Source: Candidatus Uhrbacteria bacterium CG10_big_fil_rev_8_21_14_0_10_50_16 (GTDB lineage: Bacteria; Patescibacteriota; Patescibacteriia; UBA9934; UBA11717). Taken from it: a DNA stretch of 64,000 bases. Both the position numbers and the translations under genes were made by a program. Position 1 is the stretch's first letter; every line of letters starts with the position of its first letter. The stretch lies in NCBI GenBank assembly GCA_002774875.1, contig PCYM01000010.1, positions 8,645-72,644 of the forward strand. The letters are read 5' to 3'. The notes under the pieces were generated by a model, which did not search any database, was not told where the DNA came from, and worked only from the letters and a program-made list of their open reading frames with translations. Below are positions 48,801 to 63,311 of this stretch, piece after piece.

Positions 48801-49361
48801 TCGCTCGCCAATGTTTGGGGGCGTGGTGATGAGGTGGGGTCTACAACGGATGACAATTATTACAAAGCCCACCGTGGGTTGAACGCGAGCCAACAGCAAA
48901 TTTGTGTGCCTCCATCCGGGGAGGAAGAATGGGGCAAGACGTCCGATAGTTGTCAAAGCGGACCGTTCCAATTCCAACATAATTACCGTTGTACACCGGG
49001 GATGTTTAACTGGCTCCAGGTCGCTGGGCGTGAGTGTCATTATGTAACGGGCACAAACATCTTAGAAAACTCGCCGTGTTATGAGCCGGGTGGGGATGTG
49101 TGTATCTTCCAACCGCGGGTGTACGTAAAAGATAACTGGGATTACTGTACGGGTGTGTGTACGATTGGGCCGAATGGCAATTCTACGTGTCAGGGGTCTG
49201 TATTGTTACCTTTTTCGCCGGTTGATTTAATAGCAGAGTGTAATCAAAATATTTGGCCTCGCACAGAATTAGATGACCCAGGGTATCCAAATGGCAGTTA
49301 TAATAATCCTTGGATCAACTGGGATGGCAACATCCGTATAACACCTACCAATAACTTGTAA
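39885..49361 (+). CDS. Giant secreted cysteine-rich protein (3158 aa): signal peptide, about 330-aa Cys-poor helical N-terminal region, then about 2800 aa rich in C/G/T/S/D/N
   Basis: Single uninterrupted ORF of 9.5 kb. Signal peptide MKRARHIFEKLFLGWMIGVMLVASSFAVPRAALAQG. Very many Cys residues spread over the length, with no obvious tandem repeat. One internal segment resembles a carbohydrate-binding/jelly-roll module. Confidence 0.85.
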   Translation: MKRARHIFEKLFLGWMIGVMLVASSFAVPRAALAQGLPVIDSSLLGFKTKEEIEKAILKPLGVALIQILINLVSFVANRLAYDAALAIASGGKGQTANFEYRSIEEYGQDLWQSVLGESIGQLSEGLDMAGVNFDVCAPTSPIKTLNLQLGIAGGARPEPTCDFRDIQSNWEGFVATLQEDADPNRIFDEFAASFGQGQTELSATISILSQTYAQAAQTQDIKTSELLANDRFKDVEDFITGNVKTPSTVLEDQFKGKLDEAQNNQTEALKSALFGNEGALLQIGVSAGSVFLNTLLSQLTNKIYTGLFEPPTTGGVFNPDFINIRGRDRARETFKGLLTTPIQTLDQYNVVNQFVTCPGATNRGPNNCVMDTSFAAIISRSEAGEGMTIQQAIDADLLHGGWPLVSSARADLDQDAFCYTQAYCYSNLVKMRVARVIPVGLEIAADKSGQGNLPVITLQQAVNAFNDCNFENPDALLDANNPYCHLVDPNWVIKYPETQCRAQVFGQTLVAESANVRAETCVDTPSCISEDENGNCVGGYGYCTRERNVWQFDGDVCPSQYASCTTLTSRTGERDSLLTNTVDFAGCNADNAGCAWYRTEQQRNDNDTPADPTDDIFTWGTEVPNDNGTPGDPTDDFVDITDTNPAAAPNVSTVRTYFNAQTQACRAADAGCTDLVRASSSTLNPVLNASFEDDADQNNAPDHWDLGSGSQYRTSGLDAAFGGDAVWIPEGDAILTHESVHLSANQFVTVSFHTRGEALLNTSVESLLTFVNASGVGVTPTILLNSPNCTSGGGSVFFEGTAGDTYERFSCTFTTPSLADTWMTIRLEAVAGDAYIDGVQVDEQEVTTNFHVGYGSSSERVDIRVAPDYLECTGNATDAEICNNYAPVCRASEVGCTAYTPTNGDPTVPGIVNSTNTCPSECVGYETYRQLASNFSTAVFPTTFIADSARSCTAEAAGCSEFTNLDALAEGGESREYFVDVRACQEEAEAANTGAVYYTWEGSDVSGFQLRTWSLKQSNAGDAPCTDFNAASGTCVDASTAAPAGCSQHADIFLDPDCREFYDASGDIHYRYYSDTVTVDNACSPYRKTNSTLNDCQTTGGVWNVSAGNCTYNIMPSESTQCSAAANGCRGYTGNTGNNTRIVLQEYFETGNLGNWPDVSGTSLYSNESVAAGGHSMLVGNVVAAQQSEGQIFAERGYILSFWAKGSGTLLANFVGATGPSVSMVPGLTLTNGWQEYTFGPVTPTGAGFDEATARLTFDLNGTAAYVDNITLREVQDTAYLIENSWVTPSTCDQTPQGVAAPQFYLGCQEYRTHRGETVDLTSFASICRQEAIGCEGFFDTQNSNSPYPQAFNLTCSVGGSVTEPTPCSFDGKDVCTVFPGQATCKFQANGVDAPFTLAPYLAEDTEVVPRDEKVFLVDLPQYRCSAQAAGCTLYGSPDFNIDNTEVTAYASVALLNDPDTYGDTLCEQEDLFCDAYSSDGGALFYFKNPGSQKCEYKELVTIEGTVYSGWFRVGGSEPCYYDDLNNNGEFDAASELSDSYLIGGTAFGIWHNGDAANYDGWAGTCPAEQSSCSEFVDVVDVADGLHPNGRPYYYLNNDRINPAADSASESCNGLISQEQGCVGFNNNATPFVTFNASASYIKSWHSDTLVNADKRFTPVDPVDCSSGTGGIYTLPDGSTIDLCQSFCVYPTQTGFSGDLPQYNVSVEGSCVVDQDCGTRTDTFGADQQGSCYKAYEPNPDAYLCLGGGEHGELHQNSGSCVTSQAFFVPGRVQSIYGTSQRQPNDANTILNVRRDRQCSEWLACDSQTSAWDDEQGKFVNVCNSVSLCNEYSAVGSQSFCSNWIEEPIRVLDDVEYANRDVTWYGSEYSGYSIPDQYAVQDYSQININPEKLCQNSVSGKIYNVSGGVTVYNSVSGQWDNGVPASCASTNNCLGFSADAICTSADEDYRLAVTLGPCVTGTANGASCSVGQCTDTLLACASNADCGTGPGVFCNLAPTVAESGQCFNGLCASSVDGTDLVNATRQECRGYPESNAPFPNDIVTNWTAQRALVLPNDGPLEERPTAFRPGFANATYCASGEACDCSYVTAEYGGGVKSLNLARGNGEGALPGVCVGGEFEGSSCTGDNQCSNTSGGGGGICEFITAKNTFIGWPGFCIQSDLSININASQDKNACLLWLPVDQLRGGTDIYNKFTEAGFSIANTTYCTQNSVFIDLGVTGAQDTISNDDINDTIAPACAASFPPDATGVPTPPIGFTDPLGAWFVQMVNATANGVTRNVPENASGSEAATGGCDADEYNSCWASVACPKNYFAVIGACEADANVCGNSAGPEGDVFEDCPYFCVPYGSKYELPVDAIGAVPGDVCAPPANMVANGMTVPINSTALDLGLTDEEEIFSRATWSGTSGPASEQGTDTAFGYLVNDEDFQALEDRYASCRVRGYEWNADSLLDNYYVPLWPVESLMISDLEHNWEYYLGCSELAFTSVEAGYGNQSDTVGNAAYTNRALTPNQNVAWQYTLNEAGMPSALSYNSATQPDDVGRIVPSYEFTDASHITINDPTQADFAGATVLACNNSNLSLEPLAEGSACTTLTGNITTSARSYDDTSFSLPSALNGGEFDCDIATDCPNYTAPSGGQCLTGVNNFACFVGCDEGSMQANDIANAYIASGWNIAGANSWCASMELGSCVADINNLSNQLDYTCQRYYGHPLSSIVGEANQAAALGTSQNVCNSASANGTFFDSSTWMAANPTGDWESFVFATEHQCDISGGDAMCDTDSQCGGSPGTLCLNNTCSIDLTSIPNADIIPIKNPGSTPAQVLGRLKQFFARVYSFWEYDDETATIARSTNNADAPVTVGGTGVYEKIGLGPFSAADLDDRQDGDANGTGPNNGTPTSPQVASVTDNCVGTNCVEGETGTFSVNGSAGRIWNAQRSFLANIEFYAFTDPNQYPLKNVIVDWGDGQETGWGASLSIPNSLANVWGRGDEVGSTTDDNYYKAHRGLNASQQQICVPPSGEEEWGKTSDSCQSGPFQFQHNYRCTPGMFNWLQVAGRECHYVTGTNILENSPCYEPGGDVCIFQPRVYVKDNWDYCTGVCTIGPNGNSTCQGSVLLPFSPVDLIAECNQNIWPRTELDDPGYPNGSYNNPWINWDGNIRITPTNNL

Positions 49362-49388
49362 CATAAAAGAGCCGTAAGGCTCTTTTAT
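49362..49388 (+). terminator. Terminator after the giant gene (AAAGAGCC-gtaa-GGCTCTTTT)
   Basis: Perfect hairpin with a T-run immediately after the stop. Confidence 0.55.
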
Positions 49389-49488
49389 CTTTAAGGTAAG
49401 ATTAGAAAAAGGTCTATTTTGCCTAGAAAAAAGGACACCCGCCACGTACAGGAGGTACGGGCGGGGTCGTGAGGGTTGAACGGAGCGA

Positions 49489-50142
49489 TCAGAGGCGATC
49501 GCAGTGGATGTTGAGTTGATCACCGAGATCGTAGGTGATGGCACCTTCGATCTCGGTGTAGCTCTCGTCGAACGTGGCATCGAGGCGTCCCTGCCCATCC
49601 ACGATGGCCACCAATTCGCGGTTGAAGAGCACTCCACCCACCTGGCCGGTGATCTCTTGACCATCTTCGGTCTGAAGAAAGACGGTGCTGTGGGACGGCC
49701 CGAAGGCGCAGTCCCACGCCCATCCGGCGTAGGGGGTGTCGATCGTGGGGACGTTGAGCATCCCTCCGTCCCGAACGCTGAACTCGATGGTCTCCGGCTG
49801 GTTGAACATCTCCGCCCAGCGAGGGTTGTTGTAGGTCACAACCTCCGCCTTGCCGTGGGCTACGGTCACCTCACACGGCGGGCGGGCCCAGGGGGCGTCG
49901 CGGGGATCGATCCCGGGGGGGATGACCTCGATCTCGTACGGACCTCCCTCCTGGAGGGTGACCGTGTGATCCACGGCATGGCCGTCGATCTCGAGGTCGA
50001 ACGCGTCCGGACGGCCGATGTCGACCGTGACCGTGACGTCGCCGCTGATGACCGTGTCGTCGTCGTCCCCGGGGAGCAGGGACGGGTCGCAACCGGTGAA
50101 CAGGACGCTGCCGAGCAGCGCCGCGATGAGCATGGAACGCAT
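49489..50142 (-). CDS. Lipoprotein (lipobox LFTGC) encoded in a about 66% GC island
   Basis: RBS GGAGAA before the internal ATG (MRSMLIAALLGSVLFTGC). The ORF track extends to 50208. Sharp GC jump at about 49430-50210. Confidence 0.5.
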   Translation of the reverse strand: MRSMLIAALLGSVLFTGCDPSLLPGDDDDTVISGDVTVTVDIGRPDAFDLEIDGHAVDHTVTLQEGGPYEIEVIPPGIDPRDAPWARPPCEVTVAHGKAEVVTYNNPRWAEMFNQPETIEFSVRDGGMLNVPTIDTPYAGWAWDCAFGPSHSTVFLQTEDGQEITGQVGGVLFNRELVAIVDGQGRLDATFDESYTEIEGAITYDLGDQLNIHCDRL

Positions 50143-50754
50143 GGCGTTCTCCTTTGCCCCGAAGGGCGGCATTTGCCGCGCTGTAGGGCGCTGCTGTGAG
50201 GGCTGCATCTAACGGATTTATTCCCGCCAGACACTGCTTCCTACCTATAAGCTAGCATATATTTTGAAAATTGTCAATAAAGACCCTCAACAAGGGCTTT
50301 CTCTCTTTAAAATAGCATTGCCGGTTTTACGCCAACGTTAGCCGTGTTTTTGAAAGGGTTCTACACAGGTTATCCACAGGTCAGTGTCGATGGGTGTCGA
50401 CAAAAAAGAGTAGAGAACCCGCCTTACTGGGTTGATCGTAAAAAAGGACGCGTGCAAAACCTGTCGACGTGGATCGACAAAAACACGTCCAATTACCCCC
50501 AGAATCCCCGATTGACGGAACAAAACGACTCTGTTGATATGGACGTGTTGACGCAAACAAACGACAACCCGGTGAAGCAAATCAACCGTTTGAATCACTT
50601 GCTTGTAGGTGTGTTTGCGCGCGACGTGTACGGATCGGGGGGCGTCTTAAGCGCTTGAGGCGCGCAATGTGATCTTTGCCTCTGGGTGGCTCTGGGTTTG
50701 GGGAGGCCTGTAACCGCTCAGGGCGACGGTCACATACCGTTGGAGGGTTTTATC

Positions 50755-51303
50755 ATGATGCAGAGAACAATTTTGTGTGCGGTTTTGGTGCTGTGTTGCC
50801 AGTGTACGGAGACGAATGAGCCTGGGTATGCCTATACGCCCATGTTCACAATTCCATTTAGTCGAGAGGAAACACTCTCCGTGAGTTCGTCTACACCTTG
50901 GCAGATGGAGCTGGAGGCAGATGTAGCCACGGATGTCGTGGCACCGCAACACGGCAAGGTGATTGAGGTTCGGGTGGGTTCTATTACCATTCGTCATTGG
51001 GACGCGAGTGCAGTTCTGGTGGTGGATGACGTGTGGGAGCCTCTGGTGTTGGTGGGTGATCGCCTGTGTGCAGGAGATGTGATCGGTCATTCCCGACGTG
51101 CGCGGGTTCGTGCATTTTGGGATGAGAAGGAGATGACGGATCAGCAAGACATTTCCATGGTTCGTTTGGTGCGAGATCACGTGGTGATCAACGGTTCCGA
51201 TGTGTCTGCAGGGGACAGAGTCTATAGTGCTCTTTCCTTGGCGCAGGACGAACGAGATTCAGATGTCGATCGGGCACGGTGTCCGTATCGAGATGGAGAG
51301 TAA
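50755..51303 (+). CDS. Lipoprotein, possibly a degenerate LytM-like domain, first gene of the T4SS-like module
   Basis: RBS GGAGGG 7 nt before ATG 50755. Signal/lipobox MMQRTILCAVLVLCCQC. A central segment (HGKVIEVRVGSITIRHWDASAVLVVDDV...) loosely resembles an M23 fold without the HxH motif. Confidence 0.45.
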   Translation: MMQRTILCAVLVLCCQCTETNEPGYAYTPMFTIPFSREETLSVSSSTPWQMELEADVATDVVAPQHGKVIEVRVGSITIRHWDASAVLVVDDVWEPLVLVGDRLCAGDVIGHSRRARVRAFWDEKEMTDQQDISMVRLVRDHVVINGSDVSAGDRVYSALSLAQDERDSDVDRARCPYRDGE

Positions 51304-51304
51304 G

Positions 51305-52441
51305 ATGAGAAATCGAGCAATGATGTGTGTAGTGATGGTTCTGACGGCATGCAACTTTGGACCCAGCGACTCGGAGACGGGTGACATGGGTGGTGGTGCG
51401 CCGGTAGTGGATGGTCGTCCCACGTTGCATATGCCGTTTCCAGTTGGGACGGCCTGGCGCTGCACACAGGGCGCCAACGGGTCGTGGTCGCATCGGTACA
51501 ACTCCACACGGTACGACGTGGACTTTGACACGCCCAACCCGCCGAGTCCGGTGACCAAGATCTACGCGCCGGTGGACGGTGTGGCGTACGTGCACAACGA
51601 CCAGACCGGATTCGGTCTGCACGTGAACGTGGATCATGGCGATGGCACCTACAGCGTTCTGGGGCACATGTCGCAGACGTTGGTGGAAGATGACAGTTGG
51701 GTGAGTGCCGGACAGCCCTTGGGTCTGGACGGCTGCACGGGCAACTGCACCGGAGATCATGTCCACCTGGGCGTGCACACGGGTGATGCCTCGCGTCCGG
51801 CGGGCGAAGGATCGTCCATCCCGTTCAACGTGTTTGCGGTGGACAGTAACGTGAGCATTACGCCCACGGCGCACAACACGAGTAACATGGTGTGCGGTCT
51901 CACGCAGGGACACTTCTACGAGAGCCAGTTGCCCGCGTGGTCGGACAACCAGACCGACGACTCGGATGTACCTACACCGCCGGACGAGGAAGACCCGACG
52001 CCATCGGATGCAGGTGACTCCGCGGACGACGATTCGGACGCAGCTGATGACGATTCGGACGCCGTAGACGACCCTGGTTCGCCGGACCCCAACCCGTCTA
52101 CGGGGCTTATTGAGCTCTGCTGGCTGCCCACCGGTCTTGTGAATCCGCACGACGGTGAGCTCTGGGTTTGGGACGGTGGATGGCAGACGGTCAACATGGT
52201 CGCGGGCGGCTTTGTGCAGCTCTGCGGCACGGTGACGGCGGACCCTGGTGACGTGTTGTTGATCAACGGGGAATTTGAGGCGGCCAACGTGCTGTCCAAC
52301 CCCTGGTGGATCTGCAGCAACTGGGGTGCTGCCGGTGGCATGGTGGTGCATGGGACGTTCTTCGTGAACGGCATCGCACTCCCGGCCACGGGTGTGGATA
52401 ACGGTGTCAACGGTTGCAATACGCGACTGATGGTGCCCTAA
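51305..52441 (+). CDS. M23-family (LytM-type) peptidoglycan endopeptidase lipoprotein with acidic linker, the T4SS-associated cell-wall hydrolase
   Basis: Lipobox MRNRAMMCVVMVLTAC. M23 motifs H-x-x-x-D (SHRYNSTRYDVD) and HxH (GDHVHLGVH). D/E/P-rich linker followed by a C-terminal domain. Confidence 0.75.
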   Translation: MRNRAMMCVVMVLTACNFGPSDSETGDMGGGAPVVDGRPTLHMPFPVGTAWRCTQGANGSWSHRYNSTRYDVDFDTPNPPSPVTKIYAPVDGVAYVHNDQTGFGLHVNVDHGDGTYSVLGHMSQTLVEDDSWVSAGQPLGLDGCTGNCTGDHVHLGVHTGDASRPAGEGSSIPFNVFAVDSNVSITPTAHNTSNMVCGLTQGHFYESQLPAWSDNQTDDSDVPTPPDEEDPTPSDAGDSADDDSDAADDDSDAVDDPGSPDPNPSTGLIELCWLPTGLVNPHDGELWVWDGGWQTVNMVAGGFVQLCGTVTADPGDVLLINGEFEAANVLSNPWWICSNWGAAGGMVVHGTFFVNGIALPATGVDNGVNGCNTRLMVP

Positions 52442-52552
52442 CGTAGCACTTGGTACGATCGATTTTGTTCGGTCGTGCCAAGCTTCAATTTGTGGATAGC
52501 CGGCTCACATCTCTTAGCGGTGCGTGCTATACTGGAGCTAATTACAAGGCAC

Positions 52553-55327
52553 ATGCTTAATTGGTTTCAACGTTCTAAACAAGTAATTCTGCGCGTTACA
52601 ACATCCCTCTCTGTTGTTGCGTTGTTTCTGTTTGTAGCACCGTCTGTTCACGCGGGTAGTTTATCCGATGCGTGGAATGATCCAGGATTATTTCTGGCAC
52701 GCATGATTGCCTATCTCATTGATAATTTGGGAGAGGTTATTGCGAGTCTCGCGACGTTGGAGCTCAAGATTCTGCAACCGATTTTGCAGTACAGCGATTT
52801 TATTAGCCACCCTGTTGTAGTAATGGGATGGGAGATTGTGCGGAACCTTACAAATACGGCGCTCATTGTCTTTATGTTGATCATTGCTTTTGGCACCATG
52901 TTTGGGGTCAAAAAGGTTAACTGGCAACAACAGATTCCAAAGTTACTAATTGCCGCCATTGCCATAAACTACAGCCGCATCATTACAGGTTTGTTCATTG
53001 ATATTGGTCAGGTAGTGATGAATGCATTCGTCAACGCACTCCAACAGGTAGGATTTGCCAACTTTTTTGAGATGCTCAAAATTCGAGAGGCCTACCAGCT
53101 TTCAGACCATCCTACGGGATTGGCAGAAGCGGGTACAGCGTTGACGTTATTGGGAACATCAATTTTTGCGCTCGTTCAAATTATTATTGTTGTGATTGTG
53201 TTGGGTGTAATGATTGCTGTTTTGTTGTACCGCGTTGTGGTTCTGTGGGTACTGATTGTGTTGTCGCCGGCCGCCTTTGGGGCGCGTGCAGCCGATGGGA
53301 TGCTTTCCAAGGCGGGAAATTATTACAGTGAATGGTGGGGTAAACTCACGGCGGCGGTGATGATTGGGCCGATTTTGGCGTTTTTTTTGTGGTTGTCTTT
53401 GGCGGCAACGGGAGCGAGCGATAAAGGATTGGCGGCAAACTTCGACACGTCTCTTGCAGAAGAAAACCAAGGAATTATCCAAAATAAGTCTTCTAATACA
53501 TCGCATTTACTCGCGTATGTGATTGGTATTGCGCTTTTGCTTGCTGGATTGGAGATGGCAAGTGGTACGGCGGGGCAGTTGGGAGGGTTCGCGGCCAAGG
53601 CGGTGAGCACCGGGTCCGGGTGGTCCAAAAAATTCGCCGCGGCACCTGTGTCGCTTGCGGGTGCGGCAACGGCCAAGACCGCACGTTTTGGTGGGCGGCA
53701 AGTCAAAAAAGTCGGTCGTTCCGGGGTTGAGTTGGCAACAGATCAAGTAAAGGGTCGAACGGCCGATTTTCGTCAATACACGCGTAAACGACTGGATCGT
53801 TTTGCCGATCGCTCTATTTTGGGTGGTGGTCTTGTAGGGGGAGCTATCGGACGACGCGCACGGGGAGTTTCTAGAAAAATGGGTAGTATGGACGATGCAG
53901 ATCGTAAACGCTTTCAGCAAGAAGAAGCCGGGTTTGGAGCAGACCTTTCCTTGGAGGAAAGTATGCGTTATCTGGAGGAAAACAGAGATTCAGGAAGTGC
54001 GCGCACACAAGCGCGAGTGGCACAACTACGTGGTTCTGTTGCATCTAACAAGGATCACATGAACACATTGCTTCAGGGTACGCCGGCACAGGCTGGACAG
54101 GCACGCCAAATGGTCAAAGATTCCATGCAACACTTTAAGGACACGGGTGATGATGCTTCTGTAAAGAAACTTGAGGATCGCATGAAGCAAGATTTGCGTC
54201 TTGGCAATGTAGATGCAAGTGGTATGAGTAGCGCCATGGAGAAGATGACAGACCGAGAGCTAAAAGGTCTATCAGAAGACAACTTTTCCGATGCAAACTT
54301 CCGTCAGGCAATGGCAAGTTCCGGTATGTTAAATCGATTCTTTGGTGGTACAGCGGACGAAAATGCGCGCAATCAGCAAGGATACTCTCGTTCCTTTATT
54401 CAGGGAGCGACGCGCGCAAATGCAAACCGGGCCCTGGACGGAGCGGAGACAACGCGTAATCAGGATGAACAAGACAGAATTGCCGCATTGGCACCGGCCG
54501 CTGCACGTGAGATTCCGCAACAGAGCAACAATACAGCGCATCGTCTTATGAATGCCCATTCTGCAGGAACGATGGGCAATACATTGTCTGCCGGTCTTAA
54601 TTTGCAGGATATTGATCTTGCAGAAATGCGTGCTGCGGGCGGAGGAACACTAGACCCTGTATTTGAAAATAGACTTATCGATGCAATACATGAGGCAATG
54701 ACATCCAGTAAGTCCGTTCCAATGGTTCAAGGATTGATGGAGGCAAGCCGCAACGCGGGTGCACCGCAGGAGCAGGCGCGTGCTCGGGAAATGATTAACT
54801 TTATGAGTGGAGCAAACGTTGCAGGATTGGACATTGGAACAGAAATTGATGCCGATGTTGCTAGCGGTGCTATTACCGGTGGTTCAGCGAGTGCTGTTCG
54901 TGCCCATCGAGCATTGCGAAACGGAGCTGTAGGATTTGGAGACATGGATCAATACGGTTTTGATGCTGCACGTCCACCCGCTAACCAGTTTGGTAATGAA
55001 ACAAATCGTCGCGAGTTTAGAACTGCGATTGCAACCAATCCATCCATCATTACAAACATTAACAACCGTATAACGGCAAACGGTGGGAATAATGACGTAG
55101 CTCGATCTGTAGCGCAGACCTTTGACAAACAAGCGCTTAATGGATTGCTAGAGAGTTTTGAAAAGGCGCGTGGAGGTCCACAAGAGGAAATGTATCGAGG
55201 AATTATTCAACAGGTTGGACAGGTGTTACAAAACCAGAGCCAGCTCATTGCCGAGGGCGATGAGATTTACGATCAAGTACAGCAAGCACAGCAACACTTT
55301 AGAACGCGTATTCGTACGCAACTATAA
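52553..55327 (+). CDS. VirB6/TrbL-like polytopic membrane protein with long hydrophilic C-terminal extension (Gram-positive T4SS channel component analogue)
   Basis: Signal peptide MLNWFQRSKQVILRVTTSLSVVALFLFVAPSVHAGS, then about 6 TM helices over about 300 aa, then about 550 hydrophilic aa. Architecture of VirB6-like proteins (ConG/Orf15/TcpH type). The ORF track starts at 52475. Confidence 0.55.
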   Translation: MLNWFQRSKQVILRVTTSLSVVALFLFVAPSVHAGSLSDAWNDPGLFLARMIAYLIDNLGEVIASLATLELKILQPILQYSDFISHPVVVMGWEIVRNLTNTALIVFMLIIAFGTMFGVKKVNWQQQIPKLLIAAIAINYSRIITGLFIDIGQVVMNAFVNALQQVGFANFFEMLKIREAYQLSDHPTGLAEAGTALTLLGTSIFALVQIIIVVIVLGVMIAVLLYRVVVLWVLIVLSPAAFGARAADGMLSKAGNYYSEWWGKLTAAVMIGPILAFFLWLSLAATGASDKGLAANFDTSLAEENQGIIQNKSSNTSHLLAYVIGIALLLAGLEMASGTAGQLGGFAAKAVSTGSGWSKKFAAAPVSLAGAATAKTARFGGRQVKKVGRSGVELATDQVKGRTADFRQYTRKRLDRFADRSILGGGLVGGAIGRRARGVSRKMGSMDDADRKRFQQEEAGFGADLSLEESMRYLEENRDSGSARTQARVAQLRGSVASNKDHMNTLLQGTPAQAGQARQMVKDSMQHFKDTGDDASVKKLEDRMKQDLRLGNVDASGMSSAMEKMTDRELKGLSEDNFSDANFRQAMASSGMLNRFFGGTADENARNQQGYSRSFIQGATRANANRALDGAETTRNQDEQDRIAALAPAAAREIPQQSNNTAHRLMNAHSAGTMGNTLSAGLNLQDIDLAEMRAAGGGTLDPVFENRLIDAIHEAMTSSKSVPMVQGLMEASRNAGAPQEQARAREMINFMSGANVAGLDIGTEIDADVASGAITGGSASAVRAHRALRNGAVGFGDMDQYGFDAARPPANQFGNETNRREFRTAIATNPSIITNINNRITANGGNNDVARSVAQTFDKQALNGLLESFEKARGGPQEEMYRGIIQQVGQVLQNQSQLIAEGDEIYDQVQQAQQHFRTRIRTQL

Positions 55328-55329
55328 CT

Positions 55330-57279
55330 ATGCCGCAATTGTCAGAGAGAACGTTCCTCTATCGGTTTTTGCCCGATGAGATTCGAGCATTCTTTTTGGC
55401 ATCTGGGTTTGAGGATATTGAAGCGATTGCAAAGGTCTACGGACTGTCTCAAGACGCAATAGACACCTTGGACACCATTCAACAGGAGGTTTTATTTGGG
55501 TATGAGCCGGTCGACAAGGTGCGTAACCTCATTCAAGATCGACTTAAGTTCGATGAAAAACTTGCTACACGCGTGGCGTTAGATTTGATCGAGAAGCGCT
55601 TTTTGCCGATTGATTCGTATCTCGGCTCCACGGCATACAGGGTTTTTTCTAGTCTTGGGGGTAATGTAACGGTGGTCAATATTAAACGCATCGACGCATC
55701 TGGCGGTACAGTCGTGGATGTTCGTCGAAGCATGACGGAATATCTCGCAGAGCAAGCGGTTAAAGCCGCCAATCCACCTGCGGCTGCGCCTGTTATTGAG
55801 GCGCCGGCAGCTATTCAACCTACACCGGTTCTTCAAACTCCCAAGCCCGTTGTTGAGCCTGTTGTGCAGAAGGCAGATCAGCCCACGGTAAAACCGACTG
55901 TTCAGAAAATGACGGAGCCTGTTAAAGAACAAAAGATCGGATCAAAATCTGTCGCTGCACCGATCGTAAAACCATTCGTCGAACAACAATCTTCGCCAAA
56001 ACCTGTCGAGAAGGTGTCCGTTGTTTTGCCACCTGTAGAATCGGATGAGGTAAAAACGGTAAAAGCATTTGATAAAAAATTAGATCGCCTAGACCCTGTT
56101 CGTAAGGGAGAAAAAGGGAAGGAGACGGGCGTGGTGAATGCGCCACTGGATCCGTCGCATGAGTTAGCTCCACCGCCCCCGGTGCTTGTAACAACGTTGG
56201 ATCAACCTAAAACGCGTAAAATTGCTGCGTTCTTTTCGCGTAAACCCAAAACGGGAATTAAACCTGAGCCGATTGTTTCATCGAAGCCAGAGCCAGTTGT
56301 CCCAAAGAAACAGGCGCCCATCTCCTCTGCTCCCGTAAAAGCGACGGAGTCCATTATGCGTGCTCCTGCCAAGGAGATTGTGGCAAAGGTAACCCCGGTC
56401 AAGCGTTCCCATGCGTTTCCCGAGGTGGAGGAAGAGGCAGAAGTCGCCAAGATGATGAAAAGTCTCGGCAGAGGGTCGCAGGTGCCGCCAAGCTTGGAGA
56501 ACAGTAAAATTGATGAGGTACAACGTAAACTTTCTTTGTCGTTTCCGTCGGCGGAACTCGACAAGCGATTTCGTGTGCTTGTGGGGTCACGATTGTCTGG
56601 GGTACGAACAGGTACGGCGTTCGCATCTGCGCTAGCGCGACCAATTGTCCAAGGGGGACTTGGATTTGATACACACACCGTGGAGCGTGTGTTGGATACC
56701 GTGGAAGGACATTTGGAATCGTCTCATTCCTCTGCAACCACAAAACTTGCGGAGGAAAAAGCTGCCTATGTTGCCACGAGGACCGAGCAATACAAAACAG
56801 ACACGCAAACACCTCCAGTACCGGAGACTGCGCCTGTAAAGACCTCTTTTACATCGACCGCGCCAAAAACACGCGCCGTGTTGTCGCAATCAACGGTTAA
56901 AGCAGGAAGGACGGCCTCTGGCAAGCAGCCGGTTGTGGACGTGCAATACAAGCGTCGTCTTGTGGGTCCTGTGGAGGAGCTTCAGAGGATGAATCTGGAG
57001 GATTTTAGGCGGTTACCAGGGGACGCAACGGAGGTGTTGGAAAATATTCGCGAGGATATTCATGCGATGTCTCGGCGAGATCCTGCCTTGTATATTCAAG
57101 GCGTGGAGGCGTGGCGGTCTAGCCCGCTTGTTGGGTTGTATCGCAAGCTAATGAGTACGGCGCTGCAACAAGGTGTTGCGATTGAATCCATTTTGTCTGA
57201 CAAGCACCTTAATCCCGGTGTTATTACACTTGAGGAACTCAACGCAATTCGTTCGTTCAATGCTTCTCTGCGTTATTAA
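55330..57279 (+). CDS. Hypothetical protein with central Pro/Val/Lys-rich linker (T4SS-module gene, no TM)
   Basis: 649 aa: N-terminal globular region, PVxEPVVQK-type low-complexity middle, conserved-looking C-terminal about 120 aa. Confidence 0.5.
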   Translation: MPQLSERTFLYRFLPDEIRAFFLASGFEDIEAIAKVYGLSQDAIDTLDTIQQEVLFGYEPVDKVRNLIQDRLKFDEKLATRVALDLIEKRFLPIDSYLGSTAYRVFSSLGGNVTVVNIKRIDASGGTVVDVRRSMTEYLAEQAVKAANPPAAAPVIEAPAAIQPTPVLQTPKPVVEPVVQKADQPTVKPTVQKMTEPVKEQKIGSKSVAAPIVKPFVEQQSSPKPVEKVSVVLPPVESDEVKTVKAFDKKLDRLDPVRKGEKGKETGVVNAPLDPSHELAPPPPVLVTTLDQPKTRKIAAFFSRKPKTGIKPEPIVSSKPEPVVPKKQAPISSAPVKATESIMRAPAKEIVAKVTPVKRSHAFPEVEEEAEVAKMMKSLGRGSQVPPSLENSKIDEVQRKLSLSFPSAELDKRFRVLVGSRLSGVRTGTAFASALARPIVQGGLGFDTHTVERVLDTVEGHLESSHSSATTKLAEEKAAYVATRTEQYKTDTQTPPVPETAPVKTSFTSTAPKTRAVLSQSTVKAGRTASGKQPVVDVQYKRRLVGPVEELQRMNLEDFRRLPGDATEVLENIREDIHAMSRRDPALYIQGVEAWRSSPLVGLYRKLMSTALQQGVAIESILSDKHLNPGVITLEELNAIRSFNASLRY

Positions 57280-57344
57280 CTGTTGACAAAAATACGTGCA
57301 CCGTTTCTGTCACGCGTCTTACACTAATCTGTTATACTGTACCC

Positions 57345-57797
57345 ATGGCTGGAGAGTCAGAACAATTCGTGATCCCGCAGTTTATAGATGTGGAAAGCAA
57401 GATTATCGGTCCGATTACGGTCCGACAGTTTACGCTTATCATGGCATCAGGGCTTGTGGGAGCGATTATCTACAAGCTGTTTGATTTTAGCTTGTTTTTA
57501 CTGATTGTTATTCCACAAGCTATCGTAACGCTCCTGTTTGCCTTCGTAAAAATTAACGGTCAAGGATTGCATTATGTGGCGCTGAATTGGATTCAAACAC
57601 TGCGTCGCCCCTCGTTGCGTGTATGGAATAAAAATAGAACAGACGCGGATCTCAAGGCGAAGATTTTTAAAAAGGAACCTCCCCCTCCACCACCGTCATT
57701 CACAAAACCCTCGTTGCATGGATCGCGATTGCGAGACCTATCGCTCGTGGTCAATACGGGTGGCGTATATATTCCTGATGATGAGAAAACAACCTAG
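57345..57797 (+). CDS. PrgI/VirB3-like small membrane protein (2 TM)
   Basis: N-terminus ...FVIPQFIDVESKIIGPITVRQFTLIMASGLVGAIIY then a second TM, the PrgI-family pattern. TGTTATACT -10 box 6 nt before the ATG. Pro-run PPPPPP near the C-terminus. Confidence 0.6.
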   Translation: MAGESEQFVIPQFIDVESKIIGPITVRQFTLIMASGLVGAIIYKLFDFSLFLLIVIPQAIVTLLFAFVKINGQGLHYVALNWIQTLRRPSLRVWNKNRTDADLKAKIFKKEPPPPPPSFTKPSLHGSRLRDLSLVVNTGGVYIPDDEKTT

Positions 57798-57799
57798 GT

Positions 57800-58495
57800 A
57801 TGGCCTCAAAACAGAAACAAACAAGCGATCCAAAGCGACCCACCACGCAACGATACCTGGATATTCAGGAAATTCGTGACGATATTGTTGCATTAAAAGA
57901 CGGAACTGTTCGCGCGGTTATTTTGGTGTCGAGTATCAACTTTGCCCTCAAGTCGACCGACGAGCAGCAGGCGGTGATTCAGGCGTATATGCAGTTTTTG
58001 AATGGGCTTGATTATCCACTGCAAGTAGTGATTCAATCACGAAAAATGCGCATCGACGATTATGTGGCTCGTATGCGGGAGGCAAGTGCCGATCTCAAGA
58101 ATGAGCTCCTTAGAACACAAACGGACGATTATATTTCCTTTATCCAGGAGCTTGTGGCGGGGAACGACATTATGAGTAAACGGTTCTATATTATTGTGCC
58201 TTACGATCCGTTTACTAACAAGAAGCGGAATTTTTGGACGCGAGCCGGAGAGGCATTGGCGCCAGGGTCGCGTATCCGGTTGAGTGAGAAACAGTTTGTG
58301 GAACGACAACATGAATTGGAACAACGTGTAGCGCAGGCGTTGGGAAGTCTCAATAGTATGGGCTTGTCTGGTGCGCGGTTGGATACACAGAGTTTGATTG
58401 AGATGTATTACAATTCGTATAACCCGGTTACCTCACAAGCACAACCGCTCGCGGATGTAAGTAAGTTAGATATCGACACGTCGTATGGCTTTTGA
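57800..58495 (+). CDS. VirB4-like ATPase, N-terminal fragment (Gram-positive VirB4 N-domain signature), overlaps the next ORF by 11 nt in a different frame
   Basis: INFALKSTDEQQAVIQAYMQFLNGLDYPLQVVIQSRKMRIDDYV matches the conserved N-terminal block of PrgJ/TcpF/Orf16-type VirB4 proteins. Confidence 0.6.
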   Translation: MASKQKQTSDPKRPTTQRYLDIQEIRDDIVALKDGTVRAVILVSSINFALKSTDEQQAVIQAYMQFLNGLDYPLQVVIQSRKMRIDDYVARMREASADLKNELLRTQTDDYISFIQELVAGNDIMSKRFYIIVPYDPFTNKKRNFWTRAGEALAPGSRIRLSEKQFVERQHELEQRVAQALGSLNSMGLSGARLDTQSLIEMYYNSYNPVTSQAQPLADVSKLDIDTSYGF

Positions 58496-60542
58496 ACAAC
58501 AAATTGAATCGTTCGAGCAGTCGAGTCGGAAGAAGGCAAAAACGGAAAAGGGACCTGCGCACCCACAGGCACCAAAAAAGCTCAATCCAAAACAGGAGCA
58601 GCAGCAACAGCAACGCCGCGAACAAGACAGTGTACGGCAGCTCCTTGAGGAAGAACGCGTGTACCAGCGTGGCGTCATCTCTATTCGTGACCTCATCGCA
58701 CCGTCTTCCTTTGACGTCAACTCGAGCTATCTAAAAATCGCGGACGTGTACATGCGCACGCTCTTTATTGTTGCTTATCCTCGGTATGTGGGTGTTGGTT
58801 GGGCAGCCCCTGTGATTAACCTTAACTGGACGTTGGACATCTCGATGTTCTTTTACCCAATCGAGGCCAAGGTTATTTTAAAACAGTTGCAAAAGAAGGC
58901 CGGAGAGGTGGAAGCACAGCTTTCTACGGATCAACAAAAAGGAAAGCCTCGGGACCCGTTGCGAGAGACGGCATTGCGAGATATAGAAGGTTTGCGCGAT
59001 TCGCTCACCCAGGGGGTAGAGCACTTCTTCCAATTTGCGTTTTACGTGACAATCTATGCAAAAGACAAAGAGGAACTTGATCGCGTGAGTGACGATATCG
59101 ATTCACTCTTTGGATCAAAACTCATCCATACAAAACGTGGATACTACCAGTCGGAGCAGGGATTCAACTCGACGATTCCTTTAGGCAACGACGAACTTCA
59201 GATTACGTTTAACATGAGCACAAGCCCGATTGCGTCGAGTTTCCCCTTTATCTCTTCTGAGTTGACGAGCGACAATGGAATTTTATACGGCATTAATCGT
59301 CATAATAACAGTTTAATCTTGTTTGATCGGTTTAGTTTGCAAAATGCTAACGGTGTAGTGTTTGCAACCTCTGGAGCCGGAAAAAGTTACGCCGTGAAGT
59401 TGGAAATTATCCGTTCCATGATGTTGGGTGTGGAGGTGATTGTTATTGACCCGGAAATGGAATACAAAACACTGTCGGATGCAGTTGGAGGAACTTACGT
59501 CAACGTATCGCTCTCGTCGGAAAGTAAGATCAACCCATTCGATTTGCCGCGTGCGATTACCGTGGATCAAGCGGTGGATGATATTATTCGATCAGCGGTT
59601 ATTACGGCAAAGGGTTTGCTGCGGATTATGATGGGAACGCCGCAAGGACAGGCGGGAAAGGTTGGCTTTACACCAGAGGAAGATGCTTTGCTGGATCGGG
59701 GCATCTTGGAGGCGTATGCAAAGAAGGATATTACCGCGCACAGTGATTTGGCGACGGTGGATCCACCAACCATGAAGGATCTGCAAGAGGTCTTGGAGGG
59801 TATGACGGGTGCCGAACAATTGGTAGAGCGGCTCAAGAAGTACACACTTGGAACCTTCGCTGGATTGTTTAACTCGCCAACAACGGTAGAAACGGATAAT
59901 CAACTGGTCATTTTTTCTGTGCGAGATTTGGAGGACGAGTTGCGGCCAATGGCGATTTACAACATTATTACTTACATTTGGAACGTTGTACGATCCACAC
60001 GCAAAAAACGTTTGCTCGTGATTGATGAGGCCTGGTGGTTGATGCAGCACGAGGACTCCGCGCGATTCATTTTTGCACTCGTTAAACGTGGCCGTAAGTA
60101 CTACTTGGGCGTGCAGACCATTACGCAGGATGTAAACGACTTTTTACGATCGCCCTACGGACAGGCTATTGTGACTAACTCCAGTATGCAGTTGCTCATG
60201 AAGCAATCACCGGCGTCTGCCGACTTGGTGCAGAGCACGTTTAATCTGACGGATGCAGAAAAATACTTGCTTTTAGAGGCAGGAATTGGACAAGGGATCT
60301 TCTTTGCAGGTAACAAACACGCGGCAATTCAGGTGGTAGCAAGTTATGCCGAAGACAAACTGGTGACCACAAACCCACAACAGCTTTTGGAGCTGGAGGC
60401 ACAGCGACGACAGTTTGAGCAGGAACTCGCATCGGAGCAGGCATCACAGCAGGGCATTGTAGATGAAGAAGTAGCAAAAAAAGAACTAGAAGAAACAATT
60501 GCAGATGAGGGGGAGGGGCTCGTGGATAGTCTCGCAAGCTAA
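58485..60542 (+). CDS. VirB4/TrbE/CagE-family T4SS ATPase (main part)
   Basis: YLKIADVYMRTLFIVAYPRYVGVGW block, Walker A FATSGAGKSYAV, Walker B LLVIDEAWWLM, conserved C-terminal motifs. Confidence 0.85.
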   Translation: MAFEQQIESFEQSSRKKAKTEKGPAHPQAPKKLNPKQEQQQQQRREQDSVRQLLEEERVYQRGVISIRDLIAPSSFDVNSSYLKIADVYMRTLFIVAYPRYVGVGWAAPVINLNWTLDISMFFYPIEAKVILKQLQKKAGEVEAQLSTDQQKGKPRDPLRETALRDIEGLRDSLTQGVEHFFQFAFYVTIYAKDKEELDRVSDDIDSLFGSKLIHTKRGYYQSEQGFNSTIPLGNDELQITFNMSTSPIASSFPFISSELTSDNGILYGINRHNNSLILFDRFSLQNANGVVFATSGAGKSYAVKLEIIRSMMLGVEVIVIDPEMEYKTLSDAVGGTYVNVSLSSESKINPFDLPRAITVDQAVDDIIRSAVITAKGLLRIMMGTPQGQAGKVGFTPEEDALLDRGILEAYAKKDITAHSDLATVDPPTMKDLQEVLEGMTGAEQLVERLKKYTLGTFAGLFNSPTTVETDNQLVIFSVRDLEDELRPMAIYNIITYIWNVVRSTRKKRLLVIDEAWWLMQHEDSARFIFALVKRGRKYYLGVQTITQDVNDFLRSPYGQAIVTNSSMQLLMKQSPASADLVQSTFNLTDAEKYLLLEAGIGQGIFFAGNKHAAIQVVASYAEDKLVTTNPQQLLELEAQRRQFEQELASEQASQQGIVDEEVAKKELEETIADEGEGLVDSLAS

Positions 60543-60560
60543 TCGACGCACATAATTTGT

Positions 60561-61127
60561 ATGATGATCACACCAGAACAACGACGAAACGGCATTATCG
60601 GTATTATTATTTTGTGTTTATTGGCAATCCTACTTGTTTGGTTCTTCTTGTTCCGATCGCCTGCGGAGACACCGGTGGAGCTGGATCCTGGAGCTGTTCC
60701 AACGGCAAACGTAAAGGACAATACAACGACCCCCTCTGTTGCACCGCTTATAAGTCCGGACACGGCAAATGCAAAAACGGTTACGCGGAATTTTGCGGAG
60801 CGATTTGGGACTTATTCAACAGACGTGCCGTTTACCAACATCGAAGAAGTAAGAGAGCTTGCAACACCCGAGTATTTTGCGCAATTGCAGAGTCAGGTAT
60901 TTACGTTGCCTGAGGGAACGGAATATCAGGGTCGTACCACACGCGCGATTTCTACAGAGCAGACGAGTGGGAGTGAGACGAGTGGAGTTATGACGTTTTC
61001 TGTGACGGTACAACATGAAATCACCACCGGGAATCGCTTAAATGCAGAATTACAGTATCAAACTGCACAGGTCGCAGTGGAAAAACGAGGATCTGTGTGG
61101 CTTGTTAGTAGCTTCACATGGCAGTAG
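60561..61127 (+). CDS. Bitopic membrane protein (N-terminal TM plus about 150-aa extracytoplasmic domain), candidate VirB8-like component
   Basis: Topology and size only; no sequence motif. Confidence 0.4.
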   Translation: MMITPEQRRNGIIGIIILCLLAILLVWFFLFRSPAETPVELDPGAVPTANVKDNTTTPSVAPLISPDTANAKTVTRNFAERFGTYSTDVPFTNIEEVRELATPEYFAQLQSQVFTLPEGTEYQGRTTRAISTEQTSGSETSGVMTFSVTVQHEITTGNRLNAELQYQTAQVAVEKRGSVWLVSSFTWQ

Positions 61128-61813
61128 GATTGTTTAAAACATTGAAAGACACAATCTTCCCCCTGAGCTGTGTTGGTTGCCAGCGCGACGGTGAGCTGTT
61201 ATGCACTGTATGTCGTGCTGGTTTTGTTTTTAGAAACACACAGCATTGCCCCGTTTGTGAAGCGCCAACTGTGTATGGCTCTACATGTGCGGAACATGTG
61301 GGAGGTGATTTGGATGGTGTGGTTGCGCTTGGGTGGTATGCAAACCCGCAATTACAAACGCTGATTCGTCAGTGGAAGTATGGGTATGTGCGCGAGGCAG
61401 AGCCGGTGATTGAGAGATTGGTTTCCGTCTGGATGAATCAAACCCAGCAACTACCCACGGGGGAGTGGGTAGTTGTGCCGGTGCCGTTACACCCGATTCG
61501 AGAGCGTCAGCGGGGATTTAATCAGGCGAGTATTTTAAGCCGTATGGTATCCGATGAGCTCGGGATTCCGATGGATACTTTGATTCTTATACGAACACGA
61601 CATGTCCTTAAGGCTCAAGCGAAGATGGAAGACAAAACCAAACGTGCAGCTAATCATTTGGACCATTTCCGTGTAGACGGGCAGGCGCCGCGCCAGGTTA
61701 TCTTGGTCGACGACGTCTATACAACGGGCAAGACCATGCAGGCCTGTGCGCGTGTCCTTAAACGCGCAGGCGCTCAGACTGTTTGGGGGTGTGTTCTTGC
61801 GCGTGGGGATTGA
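61118..61813 (+). CDS. comFC: ComF-family protein (ComFC: N-terminal 4-Cys zinc finger plus phosphoribosyltransferase domain)
   Basis: CVGCQ...CTVC...CPVC...C Zn-finger cysteines and PRTase motif VILVDDVYTTGKTM. Start overlaps the upstream gene by 10 nt. Confidence 0.8.
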   Translation: MAVGLFKTLKDTIFPLSCVGCQRDGELLCTVCRAGFVFRNTQHCPVCEAPTVYGSTCAEHVGGDLDGVVALGWYANPQLQTLIRQWKYGYVREAEPVIERLVSVWMNQTQQLPTGEWVVVPVPLHPIRERQRGFNQASILSRMVSDELGIPMDTLILIRTRHVLKAQAKMEDKTKRAANHLDHFRVDGQAPRQVILVDDVYTTGKTMQACARVLKRAGAQTVWGCVLARGD

Positions 61814-61999
61814 CGAAGAGAAGATTGTCTGCTGGCGTGCGCGTAGAGGTGTCATGAAGATACTCATGTTGATTGGTTTGTTGGTTGTGTGCGTGCCGTG
61901 AAAGGTGCAGAGCCGCCCACGCCTGATACTGCCATCATTCGCACTATAAGCGTTAAGGTGCTCCCTCAAGAGGTCCGTCTGGACCTTCTTATTTTTTAC

Positions 62000-62015
62000 G
62001 AGAGAGTGGGATTCG
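62000..62015 (-). repeat. Partial degenerate copy of the tRNA-Ser(UGA) 3' end (GAGAGAGTGGGATTCG), about 165 bp from the intact gene
   Basis: 16/16 identical to 62186-62201 and then diverges at the same T-loop position as the tRNA-Val fragment at 24538. Confidence 0.55.
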
Positions 62016-62180
62016 CCCTCGTGTCAATTTTCTGCAGAAAATTATATTCGAGTCCAGGCCTCGCGATGCGTCGTGCTCGTCGCATATCGCTCCGGCCGTT
62101 CGAATCCGTCGCACATGCCCTGTGGCATGTGCTCCACCTCGCCAAAGAAAAAAGCCCGCCTTACGACGAGCATTTTTCTT

Positions 62181-62268
62181 TGGCGGAGAGAGTGGGATTC
62201 GAACCCACGAGAGCTTGCGCCCTACTGGTTTTCAAGACCAGCGCCATCGACCACTCGGCCATCTCTCC
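62181..62268 (-). tRNA. tRNA-Ser (anticodon UGA)
   Basis: Acceptor GGAGAGA/TCTCTCC, anticodon stem CTGGT/ACCAG, loop CTTGAAA, long variable arm, T-arm GTGGGTTCGAATCCCAC, CCA. Confidence 0.85.
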
Positions 62269-62514
62269 AAATTGTGGCAACACGTCCGGAACCGTTGTTG
62301 CAAATCATCTCTTCGGCTCAGGTCCTCGTGATCTGGCAAGCTCTCTCAGCTGGGCAAACTCACGATCCTCGTTTATCGGAGGATCAGGCTCGGGATCAGG
62401 TGCCTGCTGAGGCTTGACCACTTGAGCCGGGAATCGACACACCGAAGGAACCTCACCTTGCTCTACGGTCATGTTGCCTCCAGCAGCTGACGTCCAAGCG
62501 TGAACGTCATGTGC

Positions 62515-62603
62515 TGGCGGAGAGAGAGGGATTCGAACCCTCGCGCCGGCGAACCGACCTAACGGATTAGCAATCCGTCCCCTTCAGCCTCTTGGGTACC
62601 TCT
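62515..62603 (-). tRNA. tRNA-Ser (anticodon GCU)
   Basis: Acceptor GGAGAGG/CCTCTCC, anticodon stem ACGGA/TCCGT, loop TTGCTAA, long variable arm, T-arm GAGGGTTCGAATCCCTC, CCA. Confidence 0.85.
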
Positions 62604-62703
62604 CCAAGGCAGGAGTACTCTACTATATTGGCACAATAGAATCAAGGGCGTCGCCCAATATCATCCACACGACGCTTTTTGCGTTTTCCGCTATACTGGG
62701 CGC

Positions 62704-63225
62704 ATGGACGAAGCACAATGGGAAAAAATCCAAGATGAGATTGATCCTCGCTACGGGGAGGTGGTTATGTATTGGACGATGGACGAGTTTCATCAACATG
62801 AACGTTCCAACGCCTGGTACGTGATTTTTCTTATTCTGGGTCTGGGACTCATTTTGTCTGCGATCCTCACGTCTAATTACGTATTTGCCGTGTTGCTGGT
62901 GCTTATTGGGACCTTTATGATTCTGCAGCATTTCCGGGACCCAGAGAACGTACCGATTTTGGTGTTGACGGCTGGGTTGAGTGTTGGCGAACATTACTAT
63001 CCTTGGGACGAGATCAAGGATTTCTGGGTGGCGTTTGACCCACCTCATGTGAGTAAGCTCTATGTGGACTTTAACAAGTCGAGTGAACCGTTTATCAGTA
63101 TCGATTTGCCCGAGGACATGGACCCCAACGAGATTCGAGAGACAATGCTTGAATTTACGCAGGAAAGCGTGACCCGCAAGGAAGAGTCCTTGACAGACTA
63201 TATCCGAAGGCTGTATAAGTTATAG
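62704..63225 (+). CDS. Hypothetical membrane protein (2 TM)
   Basis: 173-aa ORF. CGCTATACT -10 box 6 nt before the ATG (leaderless arrangement). Confidence 0.45.
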   Translation: MDEAQWEKIQDEIDPRYGEVVMYWTMDEFHQHERSNAWYVIFLILGLGLILSAILTSNYVFAVLLVLIGTFMILQHFRDPENVPILVLTAGLSVGEHYYPWDEIKDFWVAFDPPHVSKLYVDFNKSSEPFISIDLPEDMDPNEIRETMLEFTQESVTRKEESLTDYIRRLYKL

Positions 63226-63234
63226 CGCTTCCAT

Positions 63235-63311
63235 GTACCCGTAGCTCAGCTGGATAGAGCGTTGGCTTGCGGAGCCAAAGGTCGCACGTTCAAGTCGTGC
63301 CGGGTACACCA
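63235..63311 (+). tRNA. tRNA-Arg with anticodon GCG
   Basis: Acceptor GTACCCG/CGGGTAC, Arg-like D-arm GTAGCTCAGCTGGATAGAGC, anticodon stem TTGGC/GCCAA, loop TTGCGGA, T-arm GCACGTTCAAGTCGTGC, CCA. Confidence 0.7.

Follow-up and report, generated by a model that had tools for sequence, protein, structure and literature searches.

Patescibacteria comprise a large share of bacterial diversity and are unable to synthesise nucleotides, amino acids or lipids, and the type IV secretion systems (T4SSs) encoded in their genomes have been the subject of several publications. A survey by Quinonero-Coronel et al. (2025; PMC12102498) placed the VirB4 ATPases of these bacteria in a distinct clade related to the monoderm MPF_FATA class, and revealed that TrsD, PrgI/VirB3 and VirB6 are widespread, that VirB2-like pilins occur, and that VirB8 homologues are found almost only in the class ABY1. 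The same work reported that relaxases are nearly absent (109 against 2,474 virB4 in the Patescibacteria dataset, with 15 of these relaxases located near a virB4), that type IV coupling proteins (T4CPs) are rarely nearby and that KsgA is often in the vicinity, whereas a co-location of the T4SS with comF, recG and radA was observed in ABY1 only; import of DNA or other macromolecules was proposed. In this line, transposon-insertion sequencing in Southlakia epibionticum showed that epibiotic growth requires the T4SS genes, with ComEC, ComF and DprA being dispensable for growth and transformation needing ComEC (Wang et al. 2023; PMC10633639). A perspective from 2024 (PMC11665869) pointed to the ComB system of Helicobacter pylori as an earlier case of DNA uptake that this T4SS might parallel, in organisms lacking nucleotide synthesis, and a 2025 review on T4SS nomenclature (PMC12857230) summarised the same points and treated the envelope as monoderm-type. 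Here we analyse a related module in a stretch of 64,000 nucleotides from Candidatus Uhrbacteria bacterium CG10_big_fil_rev_8_21_14_0_10_50_16 (contig PCYM01000010.1, positions 8,645 to 72,644), which we call the window. An open reading frame (ORF) survey of its positions 50755-61813 revealed ten closely packed genes, all on the plus strand, with a VirB4 ATPase at their core and a comF gene at their end. A first-pass annotation made from the sequence had described this module as eight co-directional and tightly packed genes; the packing, the direction and the named genes were all found where it had placed them, the count was too low, and a 231-aa TrsD-like gene had gone unnamed.

Judging from its gene content and order, the module is very probably a chromosomal, relaxase-less Patescibacteria T4SS in the ABY1 layout. 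We consider it an instance of an already described system because the machine, the lack of a relaxase and the link with comF, recG and radA were all reported in PMC12102498. As in the published T4SSs of Patescibacteria (PMC12102498, PMC10633639), VirB4 comes with an adjacent TrsD, with PrgI/VirB3, with a probable VirB6-like protein and with a cell-wall hydrolase nearby, in a chromosomal housekeeping setting where KsgA is close and neither a relaxase nor a T4CP adjoins the block. As in the ABY1 members of the group (PMC12102498), there is a VirB8 homologue and a co-location with comF, recG and radA, the last two genes being found 2.4 kb and 6.3 kb downstream of comF on a Joint Genome Institute contig (L081) that is identical to window positions 51118-64000 (0 mismatches over 12,883 nt) and extends 7.8 kb further. 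In the locus of S. epibionticum (SEML1_0006-0019), by contrast, essential VirB2-like pilins are encoded as an array within the cluster, and a VirB8 fold went undetected. Compared with Saccharibacteria, moreover, the VirB8-like protein is clear and comF forms part of the block in the window, whereas ComF is dispensable for growth there (PMC10633639). The idea of a ComB-like machine for DNA uptake, raised for this locus by the first-pass annotation, is already published (PMC11665869), as is the link between T4SS and comF (PMC12102498). The window does not add, in this regard, a new kind of system; it gives a clean and complete example of the ABY1 layout, together with a structural confirmation of the VirB8 subunit at the level of a predicted model and a conserved 649-aa core gene that has no family assignment.

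A scan of species-representative genomes offered 80 related loci from Uhrbacteria, Falkowbacteria, Magasanikbacteria and other Patescibacteria, where membership of the class ABY1 was assigned by the names Uhrbacteria, Falkowbacteria and Magasanikbacteria and not by a GTDB run. Comparisons by tblastn and ORF clustering revealed that the order VirB6-649aa-PrgI-TrsD-VirB4-VirB8-ComF is kept in essentially all of them, and such a recurrence in 80 other genomes indicates that the arrangement is not due to chance. The TrsD-like gene was found in 79 of the 80 loci, PrgI in 74 and ComF in 73, the remaining seven being contigs that end too early, and the VirB6-like gene was syntenic in 56. In every locus that reaches that far (73/73), comF sits immediately 3′ of the VirB8-like gene, at a median distance of -10 to +3 nt and with about half of the pairs overlapping. 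The ComF and VirB8-like proteins are only ~25-50% identical across loci, and the synteny must therefore be old and maintained. Beyond the block, no cluster was seen more than four times as the gene 3′ of comF, and the gene 5′ of VirB6 encoded an M23 peptidase (15 loci), LytR (7 loci) or some other protein. Among the related loci, recG was present in 23 and radA in 15, and dprA was found four genes upstream of VirB6 in about seven.

The ATPase of the system is encoded by two genes that overlap by 11 nt. The second one (58485..60542) specifies a VirB4 ATPase of 685 aa corresponding to the C-terminal motor part of the family, which matches NCBIfam conju_CD1110 at 4e-102 and 342.7 bits (cut-off 325) over positions 178-730 of 752, and the solved VirB4 ATPase domain (PDB 4AG5) at 1e-44. 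Its Walker A (ATSGAGKS) and Walker B (LLVIDE) motifs are intact, as originally pointed out from the sequence. The first one (57800..58495) encodes a TrsD/TraC-like protein of 231 aa that is homologous to the N-terminal domain of VirB4 and stands as a separate polypeptide. Its NCBIfam matches are to VirB4_plasma (positions 91-233), CD1110 (positions 2-119) and TrsD (5e-5), and contig L081, whose sequence is identical, lists the gene under PF26593 (TraC-like). Because these matches cover the N-terminal part and positions 178-730, respectively, the TrsD-like protein and VirB4 together amount to one VirB4 in two polypeptides. The best named family for VirB4 is CD1110, which belongs to MPF_FATA, and CedB is matched weakly and only in part, at 5e-13 and 48 bits where the cut-off is 700. 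A Candidatus Uhrbacteria protein is 93% identical to it and thousands of Patescibacteria proteins reach ~70%; the best 120 homologues, at 67-93% identity, are all of Patescibacteria/Uhrbacteria type. Upstream of this pair, positions 57345..57797 encode a small PrgI/VirB3-like membrane protein of 150 aa with two transmembrane (TM) segments, whose match to Pfam PF12666 (2.4e-8, 34.8 bits) exceeds the cut-off of 27 and bears out the earlier assignment.

Downstream of VirB4 lies the gene for a bitopic protein of 188 aa (60561..61127). In its AlphaFold model, computed with ten homologues (pLDDT 78), an N-terminal TM helix is connected through a disordered linker to an alpha+beta domain of NTF2-like type. 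The best PDB sequence match of a profile built from 37 orthologs was PrgL of pCF10 (E 0.004), and four of the orthologs matched Pfam VirB8 directly. With the predicted structure and these matches, the VirB8/NTF2-like fold of what had been put forward as a mere candidate is confirmed. The start codon of the next and last gene (61118..61813), which encodes a ComF/ComFC-family protein of 231 aa, lies 10 nt inside the VirB8-like gene, an overlap that had also been read correctly in the first-pass annotation. This protein combines a double zinc ribbon with a phosphoribosyltransferase (PRTase) domain, and both Pfam DZR_2 and Pribosyltran score above their cut-offs. It matches TIGR00201 at 1.7e-25 over positions 1-190 of 190, and GntX, likewise from end to end, at 2.9e-23. 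The phosphoribosyl pyrophosphate (PRPP) loop VILVDDVYTTGKT is intact, and three CxxC motifs start at residues 18, 29 and 44; in an alignment of 36 ComF orthologs, C18, C21, C29 and C32 as well as the DDV.T.G loop are invariant. A single-sequence phmmer search with the window protein against solved structures gave no matches.

Two large genes complete the core. The polytopic protein encoded at 52475..55327 is 950 aa long, or 924 aa when counted from the ATG at 52553, and has a signal peptide and about six hydrophobic TM segments, a topology that fits VirB6. Its TM domain (approximately residues 50-400) is conserved, whereas the hydrophilic tail of ~550 aa is variable, starts very rich in K and R and shows conservation among the closest relatives only; the extracellular placement given to it in the first-pass annotation is putative. 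No Pfam family matched the window protein, and the profile of its orthologs found no match in the PDB; TrbL/VirB6 (PF04610) was matched, however, by 3 of 31 orthologous TM domains, with a best E of 8.4e-6. The earlier VirB6-like assignment stands in this way by transitive support through the orthologs, and a VirB6 identity is probable. Between this gene and PrgI, positions 55330..57279 encode a Pro-rich protein of 649 aa, for which a structure prediction had been recommended beforehand. The resulting AlphaFold2 model (pLDDT 62) contains three all-helical modules with disordered Pro-rich linkers between them, and the protein gave neither a TM segment nor a signal peptide, and no match in Pfam, PHROG, PDB sequences or fold comparisons. 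The gene keeps its place between VirB6 and PrgI throughout the loci, and conservation of the last 270 aa of the protein extends to as many as 73 of the 80. Searches with this C-terminal domain (window 56425-57279) among 1.8 billion representative proteins revealed a family of 2158 representatives at E<=1e-3, where it always occupies the C-terminal end of proteins of ~270-980 aa. We propose that the 649-aa protein may be an uncharacterised core subunit or an adaptor, predicted to be soluble and helical; the family is not discussed in the parts of PMC12102498 and PMC10633639 that were available to us.

The module can also be compared with better known T4SSs from other organisms. The Gram-positive MPF_FATA systems, such as those of pCF10 (Prg/Pcf), pGO1 (Trs) and the CTn2 element of Clostridioides difficile, show a similar monoderm-type minimal set, and share with the window a CD1110-type VirB4, PrgI, a separate TrsD (in pGO1), a VirB8 fold of PrgL type, a probable VirB6-like protein and a wall hydrolase, although the latter is an M23 enzyme in the window and a lytic transglycosylase/CHAP enzyme in MPF_FATA. 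Unlike these systems, the window lacks a relaxase, a T4CP, an adhesin and an integrase/replication module and shows no recognisable origin of transfer (oriT), whereas its T4SS occupies a fixed chromosomal site across species and includes two extra genes, those of the 649-aa protein and comF. Pfam searches detected no relaxase, T4CP or integrase domain in any ORF of at least 150 aa in the 64-kb window, in agreement with the previously claimed absence of VirD4 and relaxase, and none was found either in the further 7.8 kb available downstream on contig L081. An oriT is recognisable only together with its relaxase.

The ComB system of H. pylori, which works with ComEC and ComFC, is also a T4SS that has neither a relaxase nor a T4CP and is functionally tied to competence proteins. 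ComB is a diderm system with an outer-membrane core of VirB7, VirB9 and VirB10, which moves double-stranded DNA only into the periplasm, and the ComFC protein of this bacterium handles the incoming single-stranded DNA (cited in PMC10633639 and PMC11665869); to our knowledge, comFC is not located within the comB operons. Unlike in ComB, the VirB7, VirB9 and VirB10 parts are absent in the window, where Pfam and NCBIfam detected none of these domains, and the homology is limited to the common VirB3, VirB4, VirB6 and VirB8 components. A third system of interest is the crenarchaeal Ced, which imports DNA from another cell and therefore works as an inward transporter. The likeness with CedA and CedB consists of a VirB4/HerA-type ATPase accompanied by a polytopic membrane protein, although the CedB match is weak, a CedA homologue was not seen, and both the domain of life and the cell envelope differ.

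Altogether, the explanation that we favour, with a probability of roughly 0.55 for the whole of it, is that of an ABY1-type Patescibacteria T4SS whose translocon would act together with ComF to bring DNA inward at the contact with a host cell. According to this model, the VirB6-like, PrgI/VirB3, TrsD plus VirB4 and VirB8-like proteins would form a membrane translocon powered by VirB4, and the M23 lipoprotein encoded upstream probably opens the wall locally. The channel would act at the point of host-cell contact and carry DNA inward from a host cell or the surroundings. At the cytoplasmic face, ComF would receive single-stranded DNA, taking the place of the absent relaxase and coupling protein, and might pass it either to recombination, with RadA and RecG nearby and DprA in some relatives, or to nucleotide salvage. 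The import of DNA is suggested because of the invariant linkage with comF and the presence of recG, radA and dprA in the neighbourhood; taken by itself, the inward direction of DNA transport in the ABY1 T4SS is a tentative assignment to which we would give somewhat less than an even chance. Rather unlikely in our estimation is a more elaborate version, where the ABY1 T4SS would be a dedicated importer of host DNA with ComF as its fixed operon partner, the 649-aa protein would represent a new adaptor between VirB4/TrsD and ComF, and RadA and RecG would process the product.

Several observations weigh against the model of DNA import. The essential role of the T4SS in S. epibionticum is not exerted through the Com proteins, because ComEC, ComF and DprA are all dispensable for growth in this species (PMC10633639). 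Substrate and direction in the ABY1 T4SS are moreover features that we infer from the gene neighbourhood alone. The ComF of the window falls below the curated NCBIfam cut-offs (90 versus 233 bits for TIGR00201, and the same occurs for GntX), and when its ortholog profile was run against the PDB, mostly generic PRTases were recovered, with H. pylori ComF aligning only over the PRPP loop. Finally, the whole block is probably a single transcription unit, as its spacing alone suggests, and consensus scans of the locus for promoters and terminators gave matches at the level of shuffled sequence.

The alternative that best survives, doubtful as we consider it, is that the same T4SS exports proteins or effectors, or holds or remodels the contact with the host, and that comF has been kept beside it for regulatory or historical reasons, without being a functional partner. 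The data of S. epibionticum, with an essential T4SS and dispensable ComEC, ComF and DprA, speak in favour of such a role, and the authors of that work suggested protein export or some other capacity because the coupling protein and the relaxase are missing (PMC10633639). This reading has to cope, however, with the position of comF as the immediate and often overlapping 3′ gene in 73/73 diverged loci, which amid unconserved outer flanks is hard to explain without selection for co-expression, and with the clustering of recG, radA and sometimes dprA nearby. The M23 wall hydrolase and a giant Cys-rich secreted protein that adjoin the module would fit it, as would the fact that the comF linkage has been reported mainly for one class, ABY1 (PMC12102498); no candidate effector was recognised, on the other hand, and the 649-aa protein shows neither a signal nor a known fold.

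It is improbable, in our view, that the comF-like gene encodes a nucleotide-salvage PRTase, expressed alongside a T4SS whose cargo would be imported nucleotides or similar small precursors. The scores under the curated family cut-offs, the intact PRPP loop and the stronger matches of the ortholog profile to ordinary PRTases in the PDB than to H. pylori ComF all point in that direction, and the bacteria that carry these systems do not synthesize nucleotides (PMC11665869). However, TIGR00201 and GntX match the protein over its full length and ~18 orders of magnitude better than any catalytic PRTase family, and the N-terminal double zinc ribbon is a signature of ComFC/GntX, which makes a purely enzymatic PRTase role unlikely; the neighbouring recG and radA, moreover, act on DNA and not on nucleotides. 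A remnant or active part of a classical Gram-positive integrative and conjugative element or plasmid, with its relaxase, T4CP and oriT lying outside the window, was rejected as very improbable, since domains of relaxases, T4CPs or integrases were found neither in the 64 kb nor in the 7.8 kb downstream, housekeeping genes surround the block, the GC content of its core is that of the genome, the block keeps a fixed chromosomal position and an unchanged internal order in 80 species, and just 15 of 109 relaxases lie near virB4 in the Patescibacteria dataset (PMC12102498), even though the nearest named family of VirB4 are the CD1110 (CTn2) conjugative ATPases, PrgI, TrsD and the VirB8-like protein, whose closest match is PrgL, are parts of a conjugation type, and a large serine recombinase is found just past comF in a few related loci.

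Patescibacteria have to obtain nucleotides, amino acids and lipids from host cells, and their T4SS, which proved indispensable in the single species examined so far, may bear on how this happens. The ABY1 layout is the sharpest genomic clue currently available that its substrate may be DNA, with comF at the end of the probable operon in every relative that reaches it and recG, radA and at times dprA nearby. If the more elaborate version with ComF as a fixed partner were true, it would be a third, independently evolved route of T4SS-based DNA uptake, next to the ComB of H. pylori and the archaeal Ced.

Regarding the layout of the block, the intergenic gaps across the module, apart from the two overlaps described above, range from 1 to 111 nt. 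A terminator-like hairpin followed by a T-run was found by a pattern scan at 61970..61987 on the plus strand, ~157 nt after the comF stop codon, and probably represents the end of the transcription unit; it constitutes weak evidence, because such matches are no commoner than in shuffled sequence. On the other side, a hairpin at 49360..49391 with 14-nt arms (93% complementary) and a 4-nt loop, located at the stop codon of a 3158-aa gene, marks the upstream limit of the locus. A further hairpin with a 14-bp stem was observed at 52449-52482 (+), between the M23 and VirB6-like genes and without a clear T-run, which may be a processing or attenuation site, or a border between peripheral genes and the core operon. 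An Rfam search of the window recovered the 8 tRNAs and nothing else; ahead of the module it detected neither a leader nor a riboswitch.

The region downstream of comF on contig L081 contains recG, a thymidylate-synthase fusion, radA, a gene for a 456-aa T4SS_pilin-domain protein and dsbA. The first-pass annotation had stated that no pilin is present in the window. This holds, as a small-ORF search found no VirB2-like small ORF near the module; on the longer contig, the secreted 456-aa protein (L081:18330-19700, minus strand), encoded ~7.5 kb past comF, carries a putative two-TM T4SS_pilin domain (PF18895) followed by a Cys-rich domain. The T4SS_pilin match of this protein is below the cut-off (E 5.6e-4) and reaches 3.3e-10 in an ortholog. 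Orthologs of the protein (e.g., L009:18191-19513) carry a VanY D-Ala-D-Ala carboxypeptidase domain, and its gene adjoins radA in 16 related loci. Closer to comF, a membrane protein of 173 aa encoded at 62704-63225 (+) has homologues downstream of comF in 30 of the 80 loci, at variable distance and orientation. In six of the loci (L041, L045, L049, L051, L052 and L066), comF is followed by a large serine recombinase (Resolvase, Recombinase and Zn ribbon domains) and/or a 531-aa protein, and the region downstream of comF, by tRNA genes, may be a hot spot for integration. On the opposite flank, a run of dprA-pth-der-lytR was observed directly upstream of the VirB6-like gene in about seven ABY1 loci (L024, L030, L042, L044, L063, L064 and L075), which places a further competence gene near the T4SS.

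Upstream of the VirB6-like gene, the window shows two further genes of the same direction. The gene at 51305..52441 encodes an M23 metallopeptidase lipoprotein of 378 aa with a canonical LTAC lipobox, an HVH motif and a Pfam PF01551 match above the cut-off (2.1e-15), in accordance with its earlier description as a peptidoglycan hydrolase, and it is likely an analogue of the VirB1-type cell-wall hydrolases. Homologues upstream of VirB6 were found in 25 of the 80 loci by tblastn and in 23 by the cluster map, with a conservation limited to the catalytic domain. The preceding gene (50755..51303) specifies a small secreted protein of 182 aa with a signal peptide and a degenerate M23-like region (Pfam Peptidase_M23, E 0.044, below the cut-off). 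Its designation as a lipoprotein was not borne out, given that the 'LCCQC' motif does not match a canonical lipobox. Both genes are part of a GC-rich island (window 49500-52500), with 53-64% GC compared to 44-50% in the flanks, which is unlike the composition of the core T4SS genes and also contains a minus-strand lipoprotein gene (49489-50208). Because of this island and of a 182-aa homologue in only 1 of the 80 related loci, these first two genes are better regarded as peripheral additions and not as part of the core.

The giant Cys-rich secreted ORF that adjoins the locus upstream (3158 aa, 39885-49361, plus strand) gave no Pfam domain, and weak homologues were observed directly upstream of VirB6 in six loci (L045, L046, L049, L057, L058 and L080); it is possibly exposed at the surface or active in host contact, with a link to the T4SS. 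Housekeeping genes occupy the remaining parts of the window, including those for RNase J, UvrA, ValRS, TyrRS, ArgRS, NusA, YidC and GroEL, as well as a release factor, Sua5, KsgA and eight tRNAs. At 14382-14457 on the minus strand, ARAGORN predicted a tRNA-Ile with a UAU anticodon, a means of decoding AUA that is uncommon among bacteria.

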